DNA of 64,000 nt from Escherichia phage vB_EcoM_E9.1: the sequence record PP886230, one strand, 5' to 3'. Each line of letters begins with the position of its first letter. The stretch's first letter is position 1. The translations under genes were made by a program, and so were the position numbers. Positions 1 to 39,041 of the stretch are shown in pieces. The notes below the pieces were generated by a model that did no database searches, was not told the origin of the DNA, and saw only the letters and a program-made list of their open reading frames with translations.

Positions 1-164
<164 letters not shown>

Positions 165-165
165 T

Positions 166-335
<170 letters not shown>

Positions 336-553
336 CGAAATTACAATAGGAAATTAAAATGCAACTTTTAATTCTTTCAATATTGTATATTATTATAATG
401 GTTCCGATATCAATACGTTTAATTACAGTTGAACGATTTTTATCGAAACATGGAAATAGATCTATGATCTTTGTACCAATTGGGCTTATATTGTTTGGTA
501 TTTTTGCATTTATAATGGGAATTAACGCTACATTCATTTCATAGGAAACAAAT

Positions 554-811
<258 letters not shown>

Positions 812-814
812 CTA

Positions 815-1015
815 ATGTCAAAATTTATTAACCGTAAGAAAAGAAAAAAACGTTCTAAAGAAGAAATTCTTCAGTTAATTAAACAAAACAAGAAAGAATT
901 GATACTTGATGAATATGTTTTCCAATACGGAATGAAAAGTGGTTTAGTGAAAGAATGTAATAATAAGTACAGTACTGAGCATTTTGATCTTATTAAAAAT
1001 ATTCTTTTAAAATAA
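815..1015 (+). CDS. hypothetical protein, lysine-rich
   Basis: ORF 66 aa starting 4 nt after previous stop. Confidence 0.5.
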   Translation: MSKFINRKKRKKRSKEEILQLIKQNKKELILDEYVFQYGMKSGLVKECNNKYSTEHFDLIKNILLK

Positions 1016-1183
1016 AAGTATTTTTTGGATTAATTATGAGATTAACACTTGAAGAAAAAGAAGCTATTCGAGTACTGGTACGGTAAAAAGAAATTGACAA
1101 AATATGTCATTTCACCTAAACTACGTGGTAAGACTTCACTTGGTGTATTCAACGCCGCAGACTTAAACTACTAGCGGGTATTA

Positions 1184-1525
<342 letters not shown>

Positions 1526-1550
1526 GGACGTAGGATGTAAGTATTCAGTT

Positions 1551-1588
<38 letters not shown>

Positions 1589-1607
1589 AGAGGTACTTCG
1601 AGTATGC

Positions 1608-1734
<127 letters not shown>

Positions 1735-1736
1735 TA

Positions 1737-1793
<57 letters not shown>

Positions 1794-1794
1794 A

Positions 1795-1826
<32 letters not shown>

Positions 1827-1878
1827 TACCAAGCAGCTTGAAGAACTTTGTAGTGCTGCACCTATGCCGACTCTTGGC

Positions 1879-1979
<101 letters not shown>

Positions 1980-1991
1980 TATCTTACTTCT

Positions 1992-2081
<90 letters not shown>

Positions 2082-2087
2082 TACACT

Positions 2088-2513
2088 ATGACATACAACA
2101 TTGTTAAAATGGTGAACTATGTATTAAAAAACAACGCATGGTCACTGCATGATGTACAATTAGAAGATATTGGTGAAGTTAGAGTATTTTGCTATGATCC
2201 AGATTTGAATCAAACCACAGATTTGAGTAAATGTTTTAATATTTTTCTTGGTTATGAATTCAATAATCATTTTTATTCATTTGATGTGTATTTTGAAAAA
2301 GTTATATTCAGAAGTTATGAATGTGATAATGAAGATTATGATTATGATGATGAATCAATTGAATTGAATGTTAACGATATTGATACTGAAGAAAAATTCT
2401 TCCAGTACTGCCTCCTTAACGACATATTAGGATTAACATTTGAGGACATTAAAGCTATACTTAAAGTTCAAAAGTTGATTCCAGAAGAGGTTCTAAATCC
2501 ATTAAATGACTAG
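2088..2513 (+). CDS. family-A paralog (C-terminal FQY..NDI.GLT motif)
   Basis: ORF 141 aa; C-terminus EEKFFQYCLLNDILGLTFEDIKAIL shared with 2506, 3591, 4000 and 39819 ORFs. Confidence 0.6.
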   Translation: MTYNIVKMVNYVLKNNAWSLHDVQLEDIGEVRVFCYDPDLNQTTDLSKCFNIFLGYEFNNHFYSFDVYFEKVIFRSYECDNEDYDYDDESIELNVNDIDTEEKFFQYCLLNDILGLTFEDIKAILKVQKLIPEEVLNPLND

Positions 2514-2871
2514 TCTAATAGTACGTATAATGCAAGATGTTTGTAATAACCTTTATACAGGCAATTTTGACGATCCGAACATAAAAATATTATGTTATGA
2601 TGGTTTTACAATGGTACATCCATCCTATTCAAATAATATCTACGTAGCATATACAGGTGAAAATCTATTATATCAATTTGATATATATAGTACAATGACA
2701 AAGATAATTTTGGATGCCTCTAAACCAGCAATCTTTATTGCTTCTCATGATTACCATTACACTGAAGAATCACTATTTCAGTACTCAATGATTAATGACA
2801 TTGGTGGGTTGACATTGGATGAGGTTAATGCTATACTAGCTGTCTCACGTTTAGTTAAAACCCACAATTAG
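2506..2871 (+). CDS. family-A paralog
   Basis: ORF 121 aa; start overlaps previous stop; C-terminus EESLFQYSMINDIGGLTLDEVNAIL. Confidence 0.6.
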   Translation: MTSLIVRIMQDVCNNLYTGNFDDPNIKILCYDGFTMVHPSYSNNIYVAYTGENLLYQFDIYSTMTKIILDASKPAIFIASHDYHYTEESLFQYSMINDIGGLTLDEVNAILAVSRLVKTHN

Positions 2872-2880
2872 GAGATTCAT

Positions 2881-3072
2881 ATGTTCTGGAATTTATTATG
2901 CTTGTTTGGTCGTACATTGGTTCTTGCTATTATTCATACACCTGGTATTCGTAATTATGTTTCTTATGAATTTAAGAAAAATTATCACAACAATACTGAA
3001 GTTCGTACAACTAAGATGTGCAAAGACTTCAAGGTAGATGTTCCACCATTCAAGAAGTACGAGGATGAATAA
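2881..3072 (+). CDS. hypothetical protein
   Basis: ORF 63 aa. Confidence 0.45.
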   Translation: MFWNLLCLFGRTLVLAIIHTPGIRNYVSYEFKKNYHNNTEVRTTKMCKDFKVDVPPFKKYEDE

Positions 3073-3356
3073 TGGAATTCATTGTTGCACCTGATGAACT
3101 TAAAACATTCACGTTCAGAGATAATAACAATTATCCTTATACAAATCATTCATTGAATTCATTACATGTTATTTCAATCATTGCATCTGAATACAGGGAT
3201 AATCCATGTATTGATTTTAAAACCACTGATGGTGAATATACATGGGTGATCCCAAAAGATAAATATAGTTATCAAGGGGCAGTAGAAATTCGTGACTCGA
3301 TTCTAAAACAAATCGAAGATGGAAATACTCATCCTAAACTAAACACTCAGTACTGA
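3072..3356 (+). CDS. hypothetical protein
   Basis: ORF 94 aa. Confidence 0.5.
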   Translation: MEFIVAPDELKTFTFRDNNNYPYTNHSLNSLHVISIIASEYRDNPCIDFKTTDGEYTWVIPKDKYSYQGAVEIRDSILKQIEDGNTHPKLNTQY

Positions 3357-3369
3357 AATCGTTTAACCC

Positions 3370-3424
3370 GATAGCTTCTAGTCAGTACTGATTCCTCCTT
3401 ATGTATAGAAGCTATCACTTTTTT
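3370..3424 (+). terminator. intrinsic terminator candidate
   Basis: 11-bp stem GATAGCTTCTA/TAGAAGCTATC with a large loop containing CAGTACTG, followed by a T6 run. Confidence 0.45.
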
Positions 3425-3512
3425 ACGTATAATGATATTACCCTCAAATTCATTATATTCGTTACCCTCTAACAGTATCTTTTTATTCCTCTTGGATGCT
3501 GTAATTTAGAAG

Positions 3513-3541
3513 TTGACTTTTTAACTTCTACTGTGTTATAC
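3513..3541 (+). promoter_or_regulatory. sigma70-type promoter
   Basis: TTGACT, 17-nt spacer, TATACT; followed by a leader hairpin GGCTGATTCG..CGAATCGGCC plus T-run before the next gene. Confidence 0.5.
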
Positions 3542-3590
3542 TTAAGGCTGATTCGATGAATCGGCCTTTTTTCTTATATAGGTGAATGCA

Positions 3591-4010
3591 ATGAGTTATT
3601 TGTTTACTTTAATTGATAAGTATGTTGACATTGTATACTGTCAAGTTTGTAGTGATACGTTTGAAACAAAAAACCCAATTAGAGATGGCTTTTTTGATGT
3701 TGTCGTTGGATCATTTTTGAATGGATACACCGAGACATTATACAACAGTAATAATATTTTTATTTCAGTTCAATCCAGACATACATCAGACTATGCTGTT
3801 AGCATTGATATTTGGGAAAATAATATAGAAATAGATATAACGGAACATACTAACATTCATGTTGATGATACATTTAATCAATTAACTGAAGAAATGTACT
3901 TGCAGTTGAATTTTGTACATGATCTTACAAATATCAGTTATGATACATTAAGGAAAATATGTTTTCTTAGTGGGGTGATCCGTAGTAATATGAGTAAGGA
4001 TGGGAAGTGA
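3591..4010 (+). CDS. family-A paralog
   Basis: ORF ~139 aa; ATG at 3591 preferred over GTG at 3582 because of upstream AGGTGA; C-terminal EEMYLQLNFVHDLTNISYDTL motif. Confidence 0.55.
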   Translation: MSYLFTLIDKYVDIVYCQVCSDTFETKNPIRDGFFDVVVGSFLNGYTETLYNSNNIFISVQSRHTSDYAVSIDIWENNIEIDITEHTNIHVDDTFNQLTEEMYLQLNFVHDLTNISYDTLRKICFLSGVIRSNMSKDGK

Positions 4011-4428
4011 AATGTTAAAAATTCCACCTAAGTCGTTAACACATCTTATTGAATGTGGTGTAATATTTTCCGAAGGTGATACCTCATCATACACATTGGT
4101 CGATGAACCTTATAATTTTTCATACCAATCTTATAAAAATAATTCTAAAATTTCTTGTAGATATGCTGAAAACATATTAATAGATGTTTCGTTACATAAT
4201 GTTCCGAAATTTTACATTGATATCTTTGGTGATTCTTTGACAATTCGAACATATGATTATTTTATTAATAAAGACCTCTTGAGTCTTCCAATTGAACATG
4301 ATACTATAGATTCAGAGATGTTCTTTCAACTATCAACAGTTTACGATTTACAGGGTTTAACTGTTGAGCAGTTGAATGGAATATTTGAGATTTCACGAAA
4401 CATACGAAGCAGGAATAAAAATGTCTAA
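4000..4428 (+). CDS. family-A paralog
   Basis: ORF 142 aa; C-terminal SEMFFQLSTVYDLQGLTVEQLNGIF motif. Confidence 0.6.
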   Translation: MGSEMLKIPPKSLTHLIECGVIFSEGDTSSYTLVDEPYNFSYQSYKNNSKISCRYAENILIDVSLHNVPKFYIDIFGDSLTIRTYDYFINKDLLSLPIEHDTIDSEMFFQLSTVYDLQGLTVEQLNGIFEISRNIRSRNKNV

Positions 4429-4831
4429 TATTTTAAATGAAAAAACAGTTGATGTTGTTATTGGTGTTCTTAACACCGCAACTTCATTTCAGAAGAAACA
4501 CAGTGTTGTATACTTTGGTGAAGATTGTTGGCTGAACTATACTAATAATTCGTTTATAATTCGTGTAGAGGCTGATGATATTGGATTAACCGTTCAGGTA
4601 GGATGTACCAAAACTGACAAACAAATCACTGTCATTGTTGATAAACTTACGTCTTCTTTTTATGATAGTATAGATGATTGTGAACACTGTAGTTCAACAT
4701 TTTATGATACAGAAGAAGAACATTTTATGGAAAGTACTGTTCAAGAGTTAGCTATTCCATATAAGCTAATGAAAGCAGTGAGTGATTTAATTTTAAAATA
4801 TAAAAAAATAGGAGTTACTAATGCAATTTAA
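4421..4831 (+). CDS. hypothetical protein
   Basis: ORF ~136 aa; start at ATG 4421 (MSNILNEK) preferred over the track start 4376. Confidence 0.5.
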   Translation: MSNILNEKTVDVVIGVLNTATSFQKKHSVVYFGEDCWLNYTNNSFIIRVEADDIGLTVQVGCTKTDKQITVIVDKLTSSFYDSIDDCEHCSSTFYDTEEEHFMESTVQELAIPYKLMKAVSDLILKYKKIGVTNAI

Positions 4832-5267
4832 TGGTAAAGTTTCCAAAGTAGGTTTGGTTTTTGAAAACTGTGAATTTGTTGATATTGATGTAAAGAATGT
4901 TTTATGGATGCATATTGCTGATGAGAAGACTCTTTGTAGCCGTTTTTCAAACGGTCTGACAATTAGTACTGTTATCGGTGAGTTCGGTATTGCATTACGC
5001 AGCAATACACCATCGGATTTCATGGACAACTCTACACTGTTAGACCGTTTAAAAATGCGTGACGTTACACACGTTTATCTATATGATACTAACGGTGTTG
5101 AACAGCGTTATGTAGTTGAATGGGCTAATTATAACCTTAGTGATCAATATTCAGTAAACCAGCGTGTTCAAATCACCCCTGGTGGTAATATTGTGTTTGT
5201 TAGTTCAACTGGTAAATTAATCAGTGTAGATGATAAAAACATTGACCTATTCACAGCATATAACTAA
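4821..5267 (+). CDS. hypothetical protein
   Basis: ORF 148 aa. Confidence 0.55.
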   Translation: MQFNGKVSKVGLVFENCEFVDIDVKNVLWMHIADEKTLCSRFSNGLTISTVIGEFGIALRSNTPSDFMDNSTLLDRLKMRDVTHVYLYDTNGVEQRYVVEWANYNLSDQYSVNQRVQITPGGNIVFVSSTGKLISVDDKNIDLFTAYN

Positions 5268-5278
5268 TACGAGCTTCC

Positions 5279-5698
5279 ATGAAAACAATCAAAATTCATT
5301 TCAAAGACACTTGGACAGAAGTAAGTACTGGTAATATTCAGGATATTTTATATAGTACTGAAACTATTCATGTTTATGATGAAGAGACTGCTACCGAGCA
5401 GTTAAAAGTTTTGCATCGTAGTGTTGGTGTGCACACCGAATATGGCATTAAACATACTCGTGAATTACTTAATACTAATCACATTGAAACCCGTAAAGCA
5501 AACTTATCAAAAGAAGAAATGTTCGATTTCATCCTGAACCATAAAGTTCATATTGAGCCTGATGGGTCTATATGGGAGAACACTGCTGGACAAAAAGTGC
5601 TGAAAAAATATCATGTTTCAATTGATAATGTAAAAATGTCAGGGTATGATTTGGAAGATGCAATTAATGAATATGTATCTAGGCAGAGGGCAAATTGA
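5279..5698 (+). CDS. hypothetical protein
   Basis: ORF 139 aa. Confidence 0.55.
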   Translation: MKTIKIHFKDTWTEVSTGNIQDILYSTETIHVYDEETATEQLKVLHRSVGVHTEYGIKHTRELLNTNHIETRKANLSKEEMFDFILNHKVHIEPDGSIWENTAGQKVLKKYHVSIDNVKMSGYDLEDAINEYVSRQRAN

Positions 5699-6069
5699 TG
5701 AGCTTGATAACATTTACAATTATTTGTTGCATTACTATTGTACTTTGTCGCCTGATTCATGTATACTCATATCATAAAGCGTTGCGAATCGAACAAGAGA
5801 TTTACAACGAAAACCGAGAACCAGAACCAGTCAAGAAGCCACCATCACCTTATGGGTTGAAACGTGAGATGCATTCTCAAAGTAAAAAGTGGGGTTATGC
5901 AATTACTAAAAATGGCTACATCTATACTGCAAGTAATGGTTATTTTCAAATTCACCACGAATTAGAAGTGGCAGTTCAAATTTTGTGGGAGATGGAGGAC
6001 ATTGGTGGTTATGAGCGTACTAAGTTTGAATTCATATCAAATGATCCAGGAACTTCACGAGAAACATGA
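5695..6069 (+). CDS. hypothetical protein with N-terminal TM helix
   Basis: ORF 124 aa; hydrophobic N-terminus; ATGA overlap with previous gene. Confidence 0.55.
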   Translation: MMSLITFTIICCITIVLCRLIHVYSYHKALRIEQEIYNENREPEPVKKPPSPYGLKREMHSQSKKWGYAITKNGYIYTASNGYFQIHHELEVAVQILWEMEDIGGYERTKFEFISNDPGTSRET

Positions 6070-6214
6070 TATAATTGTTGATGTGAAGAAGAAGGAAGTC
6101 GTTATGAAAAAGCAAGCATATAGAATTTTAGAAGACTTCCATCTAAAAGCATTTATAATGAAGTTCTGTACAGATGAACATCTTACCGGACGAGTAATAC
6201 GTAAGGAGTTGTAA

Positions 6215-6556
6215 ATGAACTTAAGTTCAACAATTCAGTACTTGAGCAGTAACTTCGAGAAAATTATTTCTCGCGGTGGGATGATTGTACACCCAGAAAC
6301 AGAGGAAATGTACATCATTGGATTTGATAAAAATTCTTATGATCAAGTACTTGTAATTTCCAAGTTAGAAAGTTATAATGAAGTTGTTCAGTTTTGCTGT
6401 ACCGAATTTGGTATCTATATTAAAGACGCTGAAACTAATACAATTTCGCATTATTTTTACCACACACTGATGGGTACTAAAGACTTCGGCTTGAAGTTCG
6501 ATGATTTAGTACAATGTCACTATATGTTTAAAACCTTCCCAGCTAGTGGGCATTAA
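6215..6556 (+). CDS. hypothetical protein
   Basis: ORF 113 aa. Confidence 0.55.
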   Translation: MNLSSTIQYLSSNFEKIISRGGMIVHPETEEMYIIGFDKNSYDQVLVISKLESYNEVVQFCCTEFGIYIKDAETNTISHYFYHTLMGTKDFGLKFDDLVQCHYMFKTFPASGH

Positions 6557-7358
6557 GGAGTATATCAATATGAGCAACATTTTCTTCAAAACTATTTCTT
6601 TCAAAAAAGCATCTTACTCCTACGCCTACGTTGATGGTAAAGTGCTTAATATTGTACTGGATGGTGTTGACGTACCAGTTGAATTTAAAACACATGAAGA
6701 AGCAGTTGAAGGTGCTAAAGAATTGAATTCAATTCTTAATGGTGAAGTAAGTCAAAAACAACATGTAAAATCTGATTTAGATGTACTTTTGGAAAAAATC
6801 AAAACTGGTGAAGTATTAGAAATTTTAGACAACTGTAATGAAAAACTTCGTAATGTAGTTAATAATGTTCGTGACCAGATTCAAGAAAAAGCACTAGAGC
6901 AAGCATTCAAACATGTATCCAAGAATGCTGAATCTCGTATTGACGGTATGGTTAAAAATCTTGATGATGTACTATCTCATCTCTTTACTAAAGAATACGA
7001 ACAAGAAGTTGAAGAAGAACCAGTAAAAGAAACTAAAAAAGAAAAACGTAGCTTTGGCTCAGGTGATGATGTGTTTGGTTTTACGAATGTCCGAACAAGT
7101 GCAGATGAACCAAAAGAAATTAGTGAGATGCTCATTGGTGACATGACAACTAAGCAGCTTCGTAATGAAATTGACAAGTTTGTAACTAGTTGTATCAAAT
7201 CAGAACGTGCACAAAGTATGTTTAAAAGCATTAGTGAGAACTTTGGTCCAGAAGCAACTGAGCAGGCACTAACTGCATTTAAAGAATTGATTTATAATGT
7301 AGCCATTAGCAATCCAGATAAAACACTTGAAGAAGTTCTACGTGACAATTTCAAATAA
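6546..7358 (+). CDS. hypothetical charged protein
   Basis: ORF 270 aa, rich in K/E. Confidence 0.6.
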   Translation: MGIKEYINMSNIFFKTISFKKASYSYAYVDGKVLNIVLDGVDVPVEFKTHEEAVEGAKELNSILNGEVSQKQHVKSDLDVLLEKIKTGEVLEILDNCNEKLRNVVNNVRDQIQEKALEQAFKHVSKNAESRIDGMVKNLDDVLSHLFTKEYEQEVEEEPVKETKKEKRSFGSGDDVFGFTNVRTSADEPKEISEMLIGDMTTKQLRNEIDKFVTSCIKSERAQSMFKSISENFGPEATEQALTAFKELIYNVAISNPDKTLEEVLRDNFK

Positions 7359-7372
7359 TTAGATAAAATTAA

Positions 7373-7400
7373 AGCCACTACAATGTAGTGGCTTTTTTTA
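7373..7400. terminator. bidirectional intrinsic terminator
   Basis: Hairpin AGCCACTA-CAATG-TAGTGGCT followed by T7; sits between convergent genes 6546-7358 (+) and 7401-8555 (-). Confidence 0.7.
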
Positions 7401-8555
7401 TTATGCGTTGTAACCAACTATTACGACTGAGCAGTCAAGCGGTTCTACTACTTTAAGAATTACATTATCATCTTCATCCACTTGTATTTCACTATGAACT
7501 ACATGATTGTCTGAAGAATATAATTGAACTTGTGGTAGTGCTTTACCATGTTCAGTTACTGGAACTGAGATAGAGTACATAGAGTCTTCACCGAGAACCC
7601 ACTCACTTAAAGTATATTCTTTATGGAAAGGAGTAGTATGCAGTGTTTTTCCGATTATACTCAAAGAAACAGGTAAATTATCAGTTTGATACACAGTAAT
7701 ATTACCTTCTGCGTCTACAGAAAGATCTACACCAACTTGATATAAGTCACCACTGTATGCTTGAAGTGCTAAGTACTGTCCACGATCATGAACATCAAAT
7801 GGAACAACCGCAGAAAATACACCTTCCGAAACAGGTTCAAATTGGGATAGAAGAACTGATGTAACAAAATCAATATCCTCACCACTTTCAAGAACATCAA
7901 ATTCCACCACTTTAGTGTTATAATATGGAGAAGTGAGCGTAGCAGTACCTTTCCCTGATTGTGTGATAACATCAACTGGAATTGTAAATGCATCATTAAC
8001 AAATTGGGTAGTAAAGTATTCTGTCCCGTCTGGTAATACGATTGTTATTACCATACCGTTAGTATCAATTTCTGAACCAGTGTTGAATAATTTACCACTA
8101 ATTGAGTCATTACCAACAAATACTGGTGAAATGAGAATATTATCTATATCACGATCTATAATACCACATTCAGGTGTATACATATGATACAAGGTTTGTG
8201 AACTACCTAAAATTGTTTTATGTAGCATAAATTTATATACAAATCCAGTATCAGTTTCTTGTGGCTCTTCAGAATATCCACGAACAAAGAAACAATTTTT
8301 ATTAATTTCACTTAATAGTTGGTCATTAGTTTTATTGTAATTTAATAGATAACCTTTATTATCTTTAGTTGTTATTTGTACTTTACGATATATTATATTA
8401 GTTCTTGGATCAACTAAATCATATAATCTATGGCTTCTTTGGCGATAGATTCTAATATTTTTTAGTCTAGTTCCATCGTTGAGGATTGCACCATCAACAA
8501 CATAACCACATTCACCAAACTTATAGCGTCCAGCCGCAGCAATTGACCTTGACAT
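7401..8555 (-). CDS. hypothetical protein (only minus-strand gene in the first 40 kb)
   Basis: ORF 384 aa; no recognisable motif. Confidence 0.6.
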   Translation of the reverse strand: MSRSIAAAGRYKFGECGYVVDGAILNDGTRLKNIRIYRQRSHRLYDLVDPRTNIIYRKVQITTKDNKGYLLNYNKTNDQLLSEINKNCFFVRGYSEEPQETDTGFVYKFMLHKTILGSSQTLYHMYTPECGIIDRDIDNILISPVFVGNDSISGKLFNTGSEIDTNGMVITIVLPDGTEYFTTQFVNDAFTIPVDVITQSGKGTATLTSPYYNTKVVEFDVLESGEDIDFVTSVLLSQFEPVSEGVFSAVVPFDVHDRGQYLALQAYSGDLYQVGVDLSVDAEGNITVYQTDNLPVSLSIIGKTLHTTPFHKEYTLSEWVLGEDSMYSISVPVTEHGKALPQVQLYSSDNHVVHSEIQVDEDDNVILKVVEPLDCSVVIVGYNA

Positions 8556-18735: not shown

Positions 18736-18936
18736 ATGTTTACTTTATATCTCGCAGTAGTTCTCACCAATGGTGAAATCACTCGTACTATTGGTGAAGG
18801 TGTATATAAAACACCAGACCAGTGCTACTCTGCCACTCATTGGCCTCGCGATAGTGGGGATGAAACTCGCACTGAATTCAAATGCATGAAAGTAAAAGGT
18901 GATTTTGTTAACCTTAAGGTTATCGAGGCGAAATAA
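18736..18936 (+). CDS. small membrane protein
   Basis: ORF ~66 aa starting MFTLYLAVVLTNG; ATG 18736 preferred over track start 18679. Confidence 0.5.
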   Translation: MFTLYLAVVLTNGEITRTIGEGVYKTPDQCYSATHWPRDSGDETRTEFKCMKVKGDFVNLKVIEAK

Positions 18937-19454
18937 TGGATATTAATGAGTTGTTGAAATTAGTGTTTAATCGTGAACGCCGCGATACAAGACCAATTGA
19001 ATATCAAGATGTGATACGCATTGAAACTGATTTCTGTTATGGTAAAACAACTCATGACCTTTTGAATCTCTCTGGAAAACGCTATGCTGATGTTTGTTTT
19101 TCAGAGAGAAGTGATGGTTCAGAAATAACGAGTACTGATATTGTTTGTTACGCACGCAGTGCTGATAAATCTTATGAAATAGAACTTATATATTCCCCTA
19201 GTTCTAAAACAAATCATCACCGCCATATTTTATATGATGTTTATACACCACCTGGTATTGCTGAATATTTTGTTATTGATTATAGTACTGAAGAAAATGT
19301 GTTTCAACAAAGTTTGATTCATAACTTTGAGGTGAATGATCCATTAGTACCAAAGTTGTTCAAACTACTTGACACCATAGATGTTGATTTTGAATTTGTT
19401 ATGTGCATTAGAACTTCTTTATTCAATGAATTCATGGAACTTTTTAATATATGA
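18936..19454 (+). CDS. hypothetical protein
   Basis: ORF 172 aa. Confidence 0.55.
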   Translation: MDINELLKLVFNRERRDTRPIEYQDVIRIETDFCYGKTTHDLLNLSGKRYADVCFSERSDGSEITSTDIVCYARSADKSYEIELIYSPSSKTNHHRHILYDVYTPPGIAEYFVIDYSTEENVFQQSLIHNFEVNDPLVPKLFKLLDTIDVDFEFVMCIRTSLFNEFMELFNI

Positions 19455-24262: not shown

Positions 24263-24484
24263 ATGAAATATATAGTACTTGTACTGATATTATTCAGTAC
24301 TGTTGTAAGTGCTAAACAAAAAGAATATGTTAAATGTATAAATTATGAAGAGAAATATGTTGAAACATATAAAAAAAGTATAATTAAAAACGTTTCGATT
24401 ACTAACAGAGCAACAATCATTGTACTTAAAAATGGGTTAATTATGCTATATAAACCACACGTTAAATGTGAAATTATTAATTGA
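24263..24484 (+). CDS. secreted small protein (signal peptide)
   Basis: ORF 73 aa; N-terminus MKYIVLVLILFSTVVSA-KQ. Confidence 0.55.
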   Translation: MKYIVLVLILFSTVVSAKQKEYVKCINYEEKYVETYKKSIIKNVSITNRATIIVLKNGLIMLYKPHVKCEIIN

Positions 24485-24491
24485 GGAAATT

Positions 24492-25064
24492 ATGAATCGT
24501 AAAGGTCGTTTTAAAGTATCAAAAAAGAACAAAAGTTCTAGGTTTAAACCTATTGTTTTAACAGTTAAATCTAACAAAGAATTAACTGCACTTAGTAAAA
24601 AGATAATTTCATCTAAGATTGAAGTATCATACGTAAATTCATTAAAATATATGAATGTCAAACCACTGGACCAACTCATTTCACTTATATTTGAACGTAA
24701 TGATTTTGAGATATCAGTAGATGATTATAGAGCCTATAATGCTGGTTTCATTAATGTTACTTGTAATAAAAAACTAACTGAGTTGGAAAATTTGTCATGT
24801 ATAATAAATCTAGATAAAGGTGTTGTGAAGTACCATTTTGTACATTTCACTAATATCAATAATGGAATGGGTGTACAATCCAGACCTATAGTGCCTACGT
24901 GTGATGTTACTAAATTAGCAAAGCTCAATGATGAAGAATATTTTCAAGAAAGCATTGTAACTGAGCATTTAGATGATATAATAGCTACTTACAAAGAATG
25001 CATATGGGTGTTGAATGCTATAAAACCTAAATTGTGTTTAATGAATATTGTTCGTGATTTATGA
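24492..25064 (+). CDS. hypothetical protein
   Basis: ORF ~190 aa; ATG 24492 after GAGGAA preferred over track start 24468. Confidence 0.55.
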   Translation: MNRKGRFKVSKKNKSSRFKPIVLTVKSNKELTALSKKIISSKIEVSYVNSLKYMNVKPLDQLISLIFERNDFEISVDDYRAYNAGFINVTCNKKLTELENLSCIINLDKGVVKYHFVHFTNINNGMGVQSRPIVPTCDVTKLAKLNDEEYFQESIVTEHLDDIIATYKECIWVLNAIKPKLCLMNIVRDL

Positions 25065-38023: not shown

Positions 38024-38358
38024 TGGAGTACTTTATTGATTTACTGCCGTGGTATATGAAAGTTAGTACCATGTACTATATTATTAGTGCTGGATTCTAC
38101 TTTCTGATGTGGTTCTTTAAACGACCAATTTCAGTATTCATCGCTGATAACATGCTGCAATTAAAATTACACGCATGGTTTGGTATGGCGATGATTATGC
38201 CTATTATTCACTACTCAATGATTAGTAGAGGTTTCCGTTCTAATGGTGAACCAATTGTATTAGTATTCTATTGGGGTTCAACTATTGCATATGTAAGTTT
38301 GTTGTTGTTCCCAGTCGTTCATAAGTTACGTGCTAAAGTTCCTGATGCGAGGTACTAA
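38020..38358 (+). CDS. family-B small multi-pass membrane protein
   Basis: ORF 112 aa; WFFKRPISVF; tail RAKVPDARY. Confidence 0.65.
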   Translation: MMEYFIDLLPWYMKVSTMYYIISAGFYFLMWFFKRPISVFIADNMLQLKLHAWFGMAMIMPIIHYSMISRGFRSNGEPIVLVFYWGSTIAYVSLLLFPVVHKLRAKVPDARY

Positions 38359-38672
38359 TGGATATAGTAACATTGATTTACACGTTGTATTCATTCTATT
38401 TCATTATGTGTTGGGTTGGATTTTTATTTGTACTCAAGATGTTTGATTATGTTGAAAAACAGATAAAAGAATTTTGTATTCCTTTTATCGGTTCAACCAT
38501 TATTAGTGTTTCTTGTGTGTATTTTTTGGTTTTTGATCCACCAGATAACACTGCAATGATTGACTTGATGTTACTACCAACAACTGTTACTTTTTTATGT
38601 AGTCTGATGCCGCCGATTAGCCGTGGACTATCAGAATTTAGACGCAATCAAAAGCGTAAACGAGGGATGTAA
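38358..38672 (+). CDS. family-B small multi-pass membrane protein
   Basis: ORF 104 aa; tail RRNQKRKRGM. Confidence 0.6.
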   Translation: MDIVTLIYTLYSFYFIMCWVGFLFVLKMFDYVEKQIKEFCIPFIGSTIISVSCVYFLVFDPPDNTAMIDLMLLPTTVTFLCSLMPPISRGLSEFRRNQKRKRGM

Positions 38673-39040
38673 TGGAAATTGCTCTTATTATCTTAACTGC
38701 TATGCTGTTTATTAGTACTGTGGTTATAATTGGTAAATTCTTTTGTGTATCATTTTTAGAAACGGTATACGATGAAATTGCTGATGATTATGAATTACAA
38801 GCCGGATTTTTCATTACGTATTGGCTTAGTTTATTTTGTCTAGTCATTGCTTGGATTTTACATATCTTTAAATGGGGTATGGTAGACGGTGATCCTATTA
38901 TGGCAATTATTGTTCTAGTGTTTGGTATCCTTGGTGGTGCAGTGCATAATCTAATGGTTATCTGGCAAACTGTTCAATATGTTTTGGTTCCCTATTTCGA
39001 AAAGATGCACAGTACAATTAAAAAACGTAAACGAGGTTAG
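38672..39040 (+). CDS. family-B small multi-pass membrane protein
   Basis: ORF 122 aa; tail IKKRKRG. Confidence 0.6.
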   Translation: MEIALIILTAMLFISTVVIIGKFFCVSFLETVYDEIADDYELQAGFFITYWLSLFCLVIAWILHIFKWGMVDGDPIMAIIVLVFGILGGAVHNLMVIWQTVQYVLVPYFEKMHSTIKKRKRG

Positions 39041-39041
39041 T

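Follow-up and report, generated by a model that had tools for sequence, protein, structure and literature searches.

Giant phages of the RaK2-like kind have genomes of about 350 kilobases (kb), in which some 83% of the genes are without known function (PMC7247149). Expansions of paralogous genes have been described among them: the phage CBB carries 22 paralogous open reading frames (ORFs) (PMC5259590), and phAPEC6 encodes eleven RCC1-like proteins and has several 'DNA condensation protein' entries in its virion proteome (PMC7247149). The array of small paralogous genes described here lies in a stretch of 64,000 nucleotides (nt) of Escherichia phage vB_EcoM_E9.1 (record PP886230), referred to as the window, directly downstream of a transfer RNA (tRNA) gene. 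Over its first 6000 bases the window is 94-99% identical by megablast to the Escherichia coli jumbo phages of the genus Asteriusvirus (G17, Sharanji, PBECO4, phAPEC6 and 121Q), which are taken together here as the PBECO4/121Q/G17 group of RaK2-like giant phages. In every one of these phages the annotation of the matched stretch consists of hypothetical proteins and tRNAs, and the gene order annotated in G17 and 121Q is that of the window.

The array shares with the expansions of CBB and phAPEC6 the phage group, the genome size and the duplication within one genome. It differs from them in that the reports on those two phages do not include this family, and in that the RCC1-like proteins are virion-associated and carry a recognisable domain, whereas the array proteins appear to be non-virion and carry none. 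A looser likeness would be to the 'hyperplastic regions', which Comeau et al. in 2007 are said to have described as arrays of small orphan genes in the plastic early regions of T4-like and other large phages. Here too small, fast-evolving, unannotated genes run in one direction, with host-type promoters, between conserved modules and often beside tRNAs; the resemblance is one of genome organisation only, with no sequence or fold relationship found. The multigene families of large eukaryotic DNA viruses, as in African swine fever virus, would likewise be comparable as tandem sets of diverged paralogs with variable copy number, a purely conceptual parallel between unrelated proteins and hosts.

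An earlier note on this DNA had proposed that four ORFs, starting at 2088, 2506, 3591 and 4000, and a fifth at 39819 end in a related motif of about 25 amino acids (aa) behind divergent N-terminal regions, and had taken them for a modular family with a shared terminal module. The first four ORFs exist, all carry the related motif and form a paralogous family adjoining tRNA genes, with the C-terminal 32 or so residues as their most conserved part. By their sequences they are true paralogs, with similarity far beyond chance, and together with the adjoining ORF E, which is probably related, they are tandem copies of one protein that has a single domain and about 120-150 aa. The modular reading and the fifth member did not survive, as set out below.

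2088-2513, + strand: paralog A, 141 aa, isoelectric point (pI) 4.1, net charge -19; phrog_17453 at 7.2e-58, end to end; motif TEEKFFQYCLLNDILGLTFEDIKAILKVQKLI at nt 2385-2480
2506-2871, + strand: paralog B, 121 aa, the member that was modelled; phrog_17453 at 1.7e-56, end to end; motif TEESLFQYSMINDIGGLTLDEVNAILAVSRLV at nt 2761-2856
3591-4010, + strand: paralog C, 139 aa, pI 4.5; phrog_35192 at 6e-94; hhalign 99.6% against the family profile; motif TEEMYLQLNFVHDLTNISYDTLRKICFLSGVI at nt 3885-3980
4012-4428, + strand: paralog D, 138 aa from the ATG at 4012; phrog_17453 at 1.5e-11; motif DSEMFFQLSTVYDLQGLTVEQLNGIFEISRNI at nt 4309-4404
4421-4831, + strand: probable paralog E, more diverged, 136 aa, pI 4.7; motif TEEEHFMESTVQELAIPYKLMKAVSDLILKYKK at nt 4709-4807

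The likely start of C is the ATG at 3591, in agreement with the earlier note, the longest ORF opening at a GTG at 3582. For D the note had given 4000, the start of the longest ORF; 4012 is the likely start, because the G17 annotation and the N-termini of the orthologs place it there, and a Shine-Dalgarno-like AGGA lies upstream. The proteins A to E are all acidic (pI 4.1-4.9, net charges -6 to -19), and in A a variable acidic loop precedes the C-terminal helices.

Relatedness among A to D is apparent at several levels. In blastp searches within the window, against a background of 248 ORFs of at least 50 aa, A and B match at 9e-12 over 107 aa and B and D at 8e-6 over 108 aa, with weaker values for A and D (0.007) and for C and D (0.035). 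A profile built from A, B and D recovers C at 6.5e-5 over profile positions 27-132, and hhalign places all four above 99% against the family profile. When profiles made from the orthologs of one subfamily were limited to the C-terminal 40 residues, in a leave-one-subfamily-out design, the subfamilies still detected each other (A/B at 2e-11, B/D at 1e-8 to 9e-8, C/D at 2-4e-4), so that the C-terminal part of the family aligns significantly on its own. The "divergent N-terminal regions" of the earlier note are indeed more diverged, with a pairwise identity of 13-32% outside the C-terminal part and of 21-57% within it, but they are not unrelated: the N-terminal parts of A and B alone detect each other at about 2e-4, and residues are conserved along the whole chain. 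Among 90 distinct members (numbering as in B) these are Y31, N44-I45 and I58-D59-I60, all in β-strands, and further along T86-E87-E88, F91, Q92, S94, D98, L102-T103, I110 and I113. The N-terminal parts of C and D alone rank each other at or near the top without reaching significance, and neither shows a significant link to A or B.

The AlphaFold2 model of B, made from an alignment of 19 sequences, is a single compact α/β domain with a predicted local distance difference test score (pLDDT) of 89 and a predicted template modelling score (pTM) of 0.82. Its elements are a helix at 4-15, strands at 26-32, 44-51, 54-61, 64-68 and 76-79, and helices at 87-96 and 104-114, so the predicted fold begins with a helix, continues as a five-stranded antiparallel β-meander and closes with two helices. 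On this model the motif spans helix α2 (EESLFQYSMI), helix α3 and the short loop that joins them (NDIGGLT). The T-E-E and (L/I)-(T/S)-x-(E/D) elements presumably correspond to helix N-capping boxes. T-E-E would thereby cap the F-F-Q-x-S helix, and D-h-x-G-(L/I)-(T/S)-x-(E/D) would provide the loop and a second cap, followed by an amphipathic helix. Since the motif makes up the two final helices of one domain, it appears to be the most constrained part of one fold and not a portable module. Searching the BFVD database with the B model by Foldseek returned only uncharacterised proteins of about 86-149 aa, the phages named being UB, PBECO4, CBB, fHe-Yen9-04 and RaK2.

The competing view, that a shared C-terminal module of about 25 aa was joined to unrelated N-terminal regions, with ORF 39819 included, can draw on the better conservation of the C-terminal part, on the failure of the N-terminal parts of C and D to detect those of A and B by themselves, on distant members (for example P0137, P0139, P0140 and P0142) whose alignment to the profile is limited to its C-terminal third, and on cross-matches to other PHROGs (24941, 23322, 24510, 12674, 24321 and 27549) made through the C-terminal motif alone. 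Against it stand the full-length alignments of A with B and of B with D, the family-wide conservation of residues in the β-sheet and the compactness of the B model as one domain. A HMMER profile search that covered 1.84 billion representatives exhaustively adds to these: it found 37 clusters at E <= 1e-3, all of 120-174 aa and most of them aligned over nearly the whole profile, and in none of the 37 is the motif attached to another domain. The module was thus not found on other proteins of related phages. The lone multi-domain member seen, a protein of 337 aa encoded at 4496-5509 of the metagenomic locus L007, contains the whole domain twice, and the duplicating unit is the whole domain. ORF 39819, for its part, fails tests of both sequence and structure. 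We therefore regard the modular explanation as largely refuted and very improbable, and hold with high confidence that the array represents one family with one fold.

Existing resources only partly capture this family. PHROGs already cluster the orthologs of A to E, but they split the one family into several clusters, and phrog_17453, phrog_35192 and phrog_24027 are all labelled 'unknown function', with neither a fold nor an array described. A to D have no match in Pfam-A or NCBIfam; when 45 members were compared with Pfam at E <= 1, 15 different families each matched one member and none recurred. The family has no sequence match in the PDB, a literature search by locus tag and PHROG identifier returned no paper naming these genes, and the papers on Asteriusvirus, Sharanji, phAPEC6 and CBB do not discuss them.

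The absence of Pfam matches also bears on the idea that the C-terminal helix-loop-helix is a DNA-binding element of the helix-hairpin-helix (HhH) or helix-turn-helix (HTH) type, making these proteins small transcription or DNA-binding factors. The segment h-x-D-I-G-G-L-T-x-x-E-h-x-x-I-L superficially resembles the HhH pattern h-x-x-h-x-G-h-G-x-x-x-A-x-x-h-h, a likeness of use only as a lead. The 45 members gave no match to any such Pfam model even at E <= 1, and net charges of -6 to -19 fit DNA binding poorly. The proposal was rejected on these two grounds and is left with scarcely any credibility.

ORF E, at 4421-4831, was missed by the earlier note, which placed the fifth member elsewhere. 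An enlarged profile that contained no relatives of E picks it up at 8.3e-5, with profile positions 35-124 of 131 aligned, and phmmer ties it to RaK2 ORF226 (6.5e-13) and to family members in two further loci (L006 and L001, the latter from G17). It matches phrog_24027 at 1e-74. Profile-profile comparison is less decisive: the E group reaches just 55% in hhalign against the family, over 35 columns that cover both helices, and E as a single sequence scores 1% against the first family profile and 29% against the enlarged one. On account of the 55% membership of E is probable and not proven. By its sequence E is nonetheless probably the better fifth member, in that it adjoins D, appears translationally coupled to it, has the same size and is acidic. 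The neighbouring ORFs 4821-5267, 5279-5698, 6215-6556 and 3072-3356 were also considered as members and gave no signal in the family tests.

The ORF that had been proposed in place of E lies 35 kb from the array and is of a different character.

39819-40481, + strand: ORF F, 220 aa, pI 9.15; shares with the array SSDLMFQYSLIH only, at nt 40323-40361

Its likeness to the family extends over about 13-19 residues of the first helix and then gives way to divergence, the second half of the motif (D-h-x-G-L-T-x-E-E) being absent. Against B, blastp gives E = 9 over 14 aa; four family profiles give E = 4.6, 1.8, 0.05 and 0.012, the enlarged profile has no match at E < 1, and an iterated profile that converged at 106 sequences never takes the ORF in. 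The ORF has a family of its own of 7 clusters, in which FQYSLIH is invariant even in a member of 43% identity, and the profile of that family compares with that of A to D at 77% in hhalign over 19 columns only. Its AlphaFold model (pLDDT 77, with five models that disagree) resembles the family in its broad sequence of helices, a β-meander and again helices, and has extra elements. A Foldseek search of BFVD with this model returns its own orthologs and not the A-D family, a member of which ranks only 34th (E = 0.75). Full membership was accordingly rejected for this large, basic protein, and the likeness of the first helix is what is left.

That likeness may nevertheless have a basis. An hhalign scan of the 114 ORFs of at least 80 aa in the window against two family profiles, with a noise floor of <= 6%, gave 66% and 26% for ORF 39819, 27% and 41% for ORF 18936-19454, and 9% and 16% for ORF 24468-25064, and the best match of the ORF 39819 profile elsewhere in the window is B, at 14.5%. 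With scores above the noise floor and B as its best match, ORF 39819 is treated as a motif-level or very remote relative, a status that is unproven. The other two ORFs (172 and 198 aa, respectively) carry TEENVFQQSLIHNFE and NDEEYFQESIVTEH behind a β-rich stretch; they score E = 0.004 and 0.014 against the family hidden Markov model (HMM), just short of significance, and may be remote relatives.

A further explanation would take the first helix, (T/S)-(E/D)-E-x-(F/Y)-F-Q-x-S-h-h, for a short interaction helix recurring in A to E and in ORFs 39819, 18936 and 24468, perhaps as the point at which a single shared partner from the host or the phage docks, or else for the mark of a remote superfamily. 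Four extra ORFs (39819, 18936-19454, E and 24468-25064) stand out in the 114-ORF scan, the match of the 39819 profile to B and the invariance of FQYSLIH point the same way, and a regular expression finds 6 matches on the coding strand where 0.3 are expected, albeit with an expression tuned post hoc. None of the comparisons is significant, however: hhalign values reach at most 77%, mostly over 16-19 columns (51 for ORF 39819 in one scan), HMM E-values lie between 0.004 and 0.05 against 248 ORFs, the reverse-strand ORF 24446-24679 scores alike, and Foldseek with the 39819 model misses the family. The recurring helix is on balance unlikely.

Two features of the surroundings of ORF 39819 may be recorded. 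Just upstream, at 38358-39777, four consecutive ORFs of 104-123 aa look by eye like genes for multi-pass membrane proteins whose C-terminal tail is basic; this architecture is common to all four, with no significant pairwise similarity (best E 0.017). From the other side, ORFs with glycine-rich repeats on the - strand at 40462-41626, RCC1-like by eye, converge on ORF 39819.

Beyond the window the family is narrowly distributed. Among 5.8 billion proteins, a word-indexed search picked out 116 clusters, all of them orthologs of A to D, and every source-named cluster came from an Asteriusvirus phage or an E. coli assembly. More distant members were reached by tblastn in the Klebsiella phages RaK2 and K64-1, in Salmonella phages of the Munch/7t3 type and in Klebsiella phage fENko-Kae01. 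Judged by sequence, the family does not appear to extend beyond the RaK2-like jumbo phages that infect enterobacteria and the metagenomic relatives of these phages, and on that account the array is best seen as real but fairly ordinary. Profile scans of the fetched loci gave the following member counts.

RaK2: 3 members (ORF223, ORF227 and ORF228), 4 after iteration (ORF226), around a tRNA-Thr
Munch: 3-4 members, around a tRNA-Leu
L006: at least 8 members, with no tRNA in 14 kb
L007 (metagenomic contig SRR28522418_709600): at least 12 members in 20 kb, interleaved with three tRNAs and including the 337-aa two-domain protein
L008: 3-4 members, syntenic with the window, tRNA-Thr and the array being followed by a gene of 263 aa and one of 384 aa on the opposite strand
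L009: about 5 members, with one tRNA-Leu

An extra member of 117 aa (E ~2e-6) occurs in G17 (L001 1866-2219, G17_00182) and in 121Q (L004 1427-1780, gp128), upstream of a tRNA-Ser/Met/Asn cluster. As this lies just beyond the left end of the window, the array reaches outside it.

The tRNA gene in front of the array in the window is the following, and it also precedes the array in RaK2 and L008.

1998-2071, + strand: tRNA-Thr (TGT), called by ARAGORN and matched by the Rfam tRNA model at 73.8 bits; it ends 17 nt before the start of ORF A

Members lie directly beside tRNA genes at every tRNA-bearing locus (the window, RaK2, Munch, L007, L008 and L009), which would favour a role in protecting, processing or regulating the phage tRNAs. 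Strongly acidic proteins are poor candidates for RNA binding, though, no member matches an RNA-binding or nuclease family, and L006 combines at least 8 members with no tRNA in 14 kb. The adjacency itself is little informative, because the region that holds the tRNAs in these phages extends over tens of kb, crowded with many unrelated small ORFs (PMC5259590). A role tied to tRNAs is accordingly given very little weight.

Within the array, paralog A stands out for its divergence. Between the window and 121Q it is 71% identical, its neighbours being 92-100% identical, and its synonymous divergence (dS) is 0.29, that of the neighbours about 0.05. Nonsynonymous divergence (dN) is 0.19 in the N-terminal part of A and 0.03 in the motif, for a whole-gene dN/dS of 0.48. 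All dN/dS values are below 1, so these are genuine genes under purifying selection, and the motif of A is, by this measure, under much stronger constraint than the rest of the protein. The dN/dS of 0.48 does not demonstrate positive selection on A. A is a local hot spot, and because its dS is raised as well, it probably diverged through allele exchange.

The array is accompanied by the following candidate transcription signals.

1678-1705, + strand: perfect σ70 promoter, TTGACA-16-TATAAT, upstream of tRNA-Thr and ORFs A and B
3513-3542, + strand: promoter-like TTGACT-18-TATACT, with TG before it, 2 nt ahead of the hairpin
3544-3568, + strand: hairpin of 11 base pairs with a T-run (terminator), just before C; G17 annotates the same terminator

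The segment 3513-3568 is the boundary between an A-B operon and a C-D-E operon, and 121Q has a near-consensus promoter at the spot equivalent to 3513-3542. Transcripts from this site would have their first base within the 5' arm of the hairpin and thereby escape termination. A and B overlap by 8 nt, as do D and E, the ATG of D lies one base past the stop of C, and Shine-Dalgarno-like sequences precede the starts of D and E; A-B and C-D-E would each be translationally coupled.

Allowing at most one mismatch to TTGACA-N16-18-TATAAT, the + strand of the window contains 24 σ70 sites (1678-63235), nine of them perfect 12/12 matches, compared with 2.5 in shuffled sequence, a roughly tenfold enrichment, and 4 on the - strand. 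Most of the 24 lie at 1.6-36.5 kb, which looks like a long block transcribed by the host polymerase, and in all other loci examined near-consensus σ70 sites occur on the coding strand only. In the RaK2-like phage CBB the region with RpoD-like promoters was taken as the early region by its authors (PMC5259590), and these phages encode their own σ factor (PMC11895373). Taken together, the σ70 sites, the phage-encoded σ factor and the view of the CBB region as early make early transcription of the array by host RNA polymerase likely. A search of the literature found no Asteriusvirus transcriptome. In phAPEC6 the orthologs are gp084c-gp088c; none of these is among the 62 proteins of the virion proteome, which does include their neighbours gp077 and gp078c (PMC7247149, Table 1). 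It is likely, if short of certain, that the array proteins are early and non-structural.

As a whole, these features are best explained, with somewhat better than even confidence overall, by a tandem family of one-domain, probably early and non-structural proteins. As to function, early host interaction is the best guess, and the tRNA-related, DNA-binding and portable-helix alternatives are all rated below it. The guess of host interaction draws on the early context, the non-virion status, the small, acidic and soluble domains, the variable copy number and the local hypervariability. In such a scheme the helical pair and the sheet core would form a fixed scaffold, the faster-evolving N-terminal and sheet surface and the loops would carry target specificity, and repeated duplication together with allele exchange would diversify the set of proteins, which would act in host takeover or counter-defence early in infection. 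This assignment to host interaction, be it in host targeting or in counter-defence, is tentative and somewhat less probable than not. The array proteins might be compared with Ocr, Ugi and many anti-CRISPRs, which are small acidic phage inhibitors: like these they are soluble, acidic α+β proteins of about 80-150 aa that vary among close relatives and are likely to be early and non-structural.

Several points weigh against this explanation as a whole. The case for relating the N-terminal parts of C and D to those of A and B draws on full-length alignments and a few conserved positions, and the fold of A, C, D and E would be that of B by extension from the single model of B. Early expression is read from promoter consensus only. 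The divergence of A may reflect the exchange of old alleles rather than positive selection, and the conserved polar residues N44, D59, E88, Q92 and D98 could form a ligand-binding or catalytic site instead of a scaffold.

A bolder version of the host-interaction proposal would see in this domain a novel fold that RaK2-like jumbo phages use as a diversifiable scaffold for early effectors, with hypervariable loops and sheet faces on a fixed core. That core would consist of the sheet together with the helical pair that carries the Q, and A's acidic loop would be one of the variable surfaces. The scaffold has expanded to at least 12 copies per genome; in this view every copy would be directed against its own host factor or defence system, and ORFs 39819, 18936 and 24468 would, by their first-helix motif, belong to a wider superfamily. 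All of this holding together is improbable, and it is offered as speculation.

Whatever the function, several PHROG clusters and many "hypothetical proteins" come down to one expanding family, which simplifies annotation. The family has a confident single-domain model with no known structural relative, and related phages carry from 3 to at least 12 copies, which makes it a compact set of candidates for screens of early host manipulation or counter-defence. A diverged tandem family of paralogs is in itself an ordinary finding for a jumbo phage, and a modestly useful one.

The surroundings of the array show some further features. An Rfam scan of window positions 1-8000 found three tRNAs and nothing else. 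The segment at 815-1187 differs among relatives by indels, with one 402-nt ORF in G17, the extra ORFs 136-137 in 121Q and, in JP4, an HNH endonuclease inside the matched stretch; it looks like a small variable spot beside the tRNAs. The stretch of about 600 nt at 1403-1997, which separates ORF 1187-1402 from tRNA-Thr, lacks both a convincing + strand ORF and any Rfam match, G17 and 121Q annotate only a 114-nt ORF there, and it holds the perfect σ70 promoter along with two copies of a palindrome, TCAGTACTGA. This palindrome occurs in 57 copies in the window at up to one mismatch, compared with 2.5 expected, for example at 1424, 1545, 3347 and 3382 and in a dense cluster at 59665-63506. Several of the copies inspected are intergenic, among them copies on both sides of the A-B operon, and the palindrome may be a phage-specific regulatory or promoter element.

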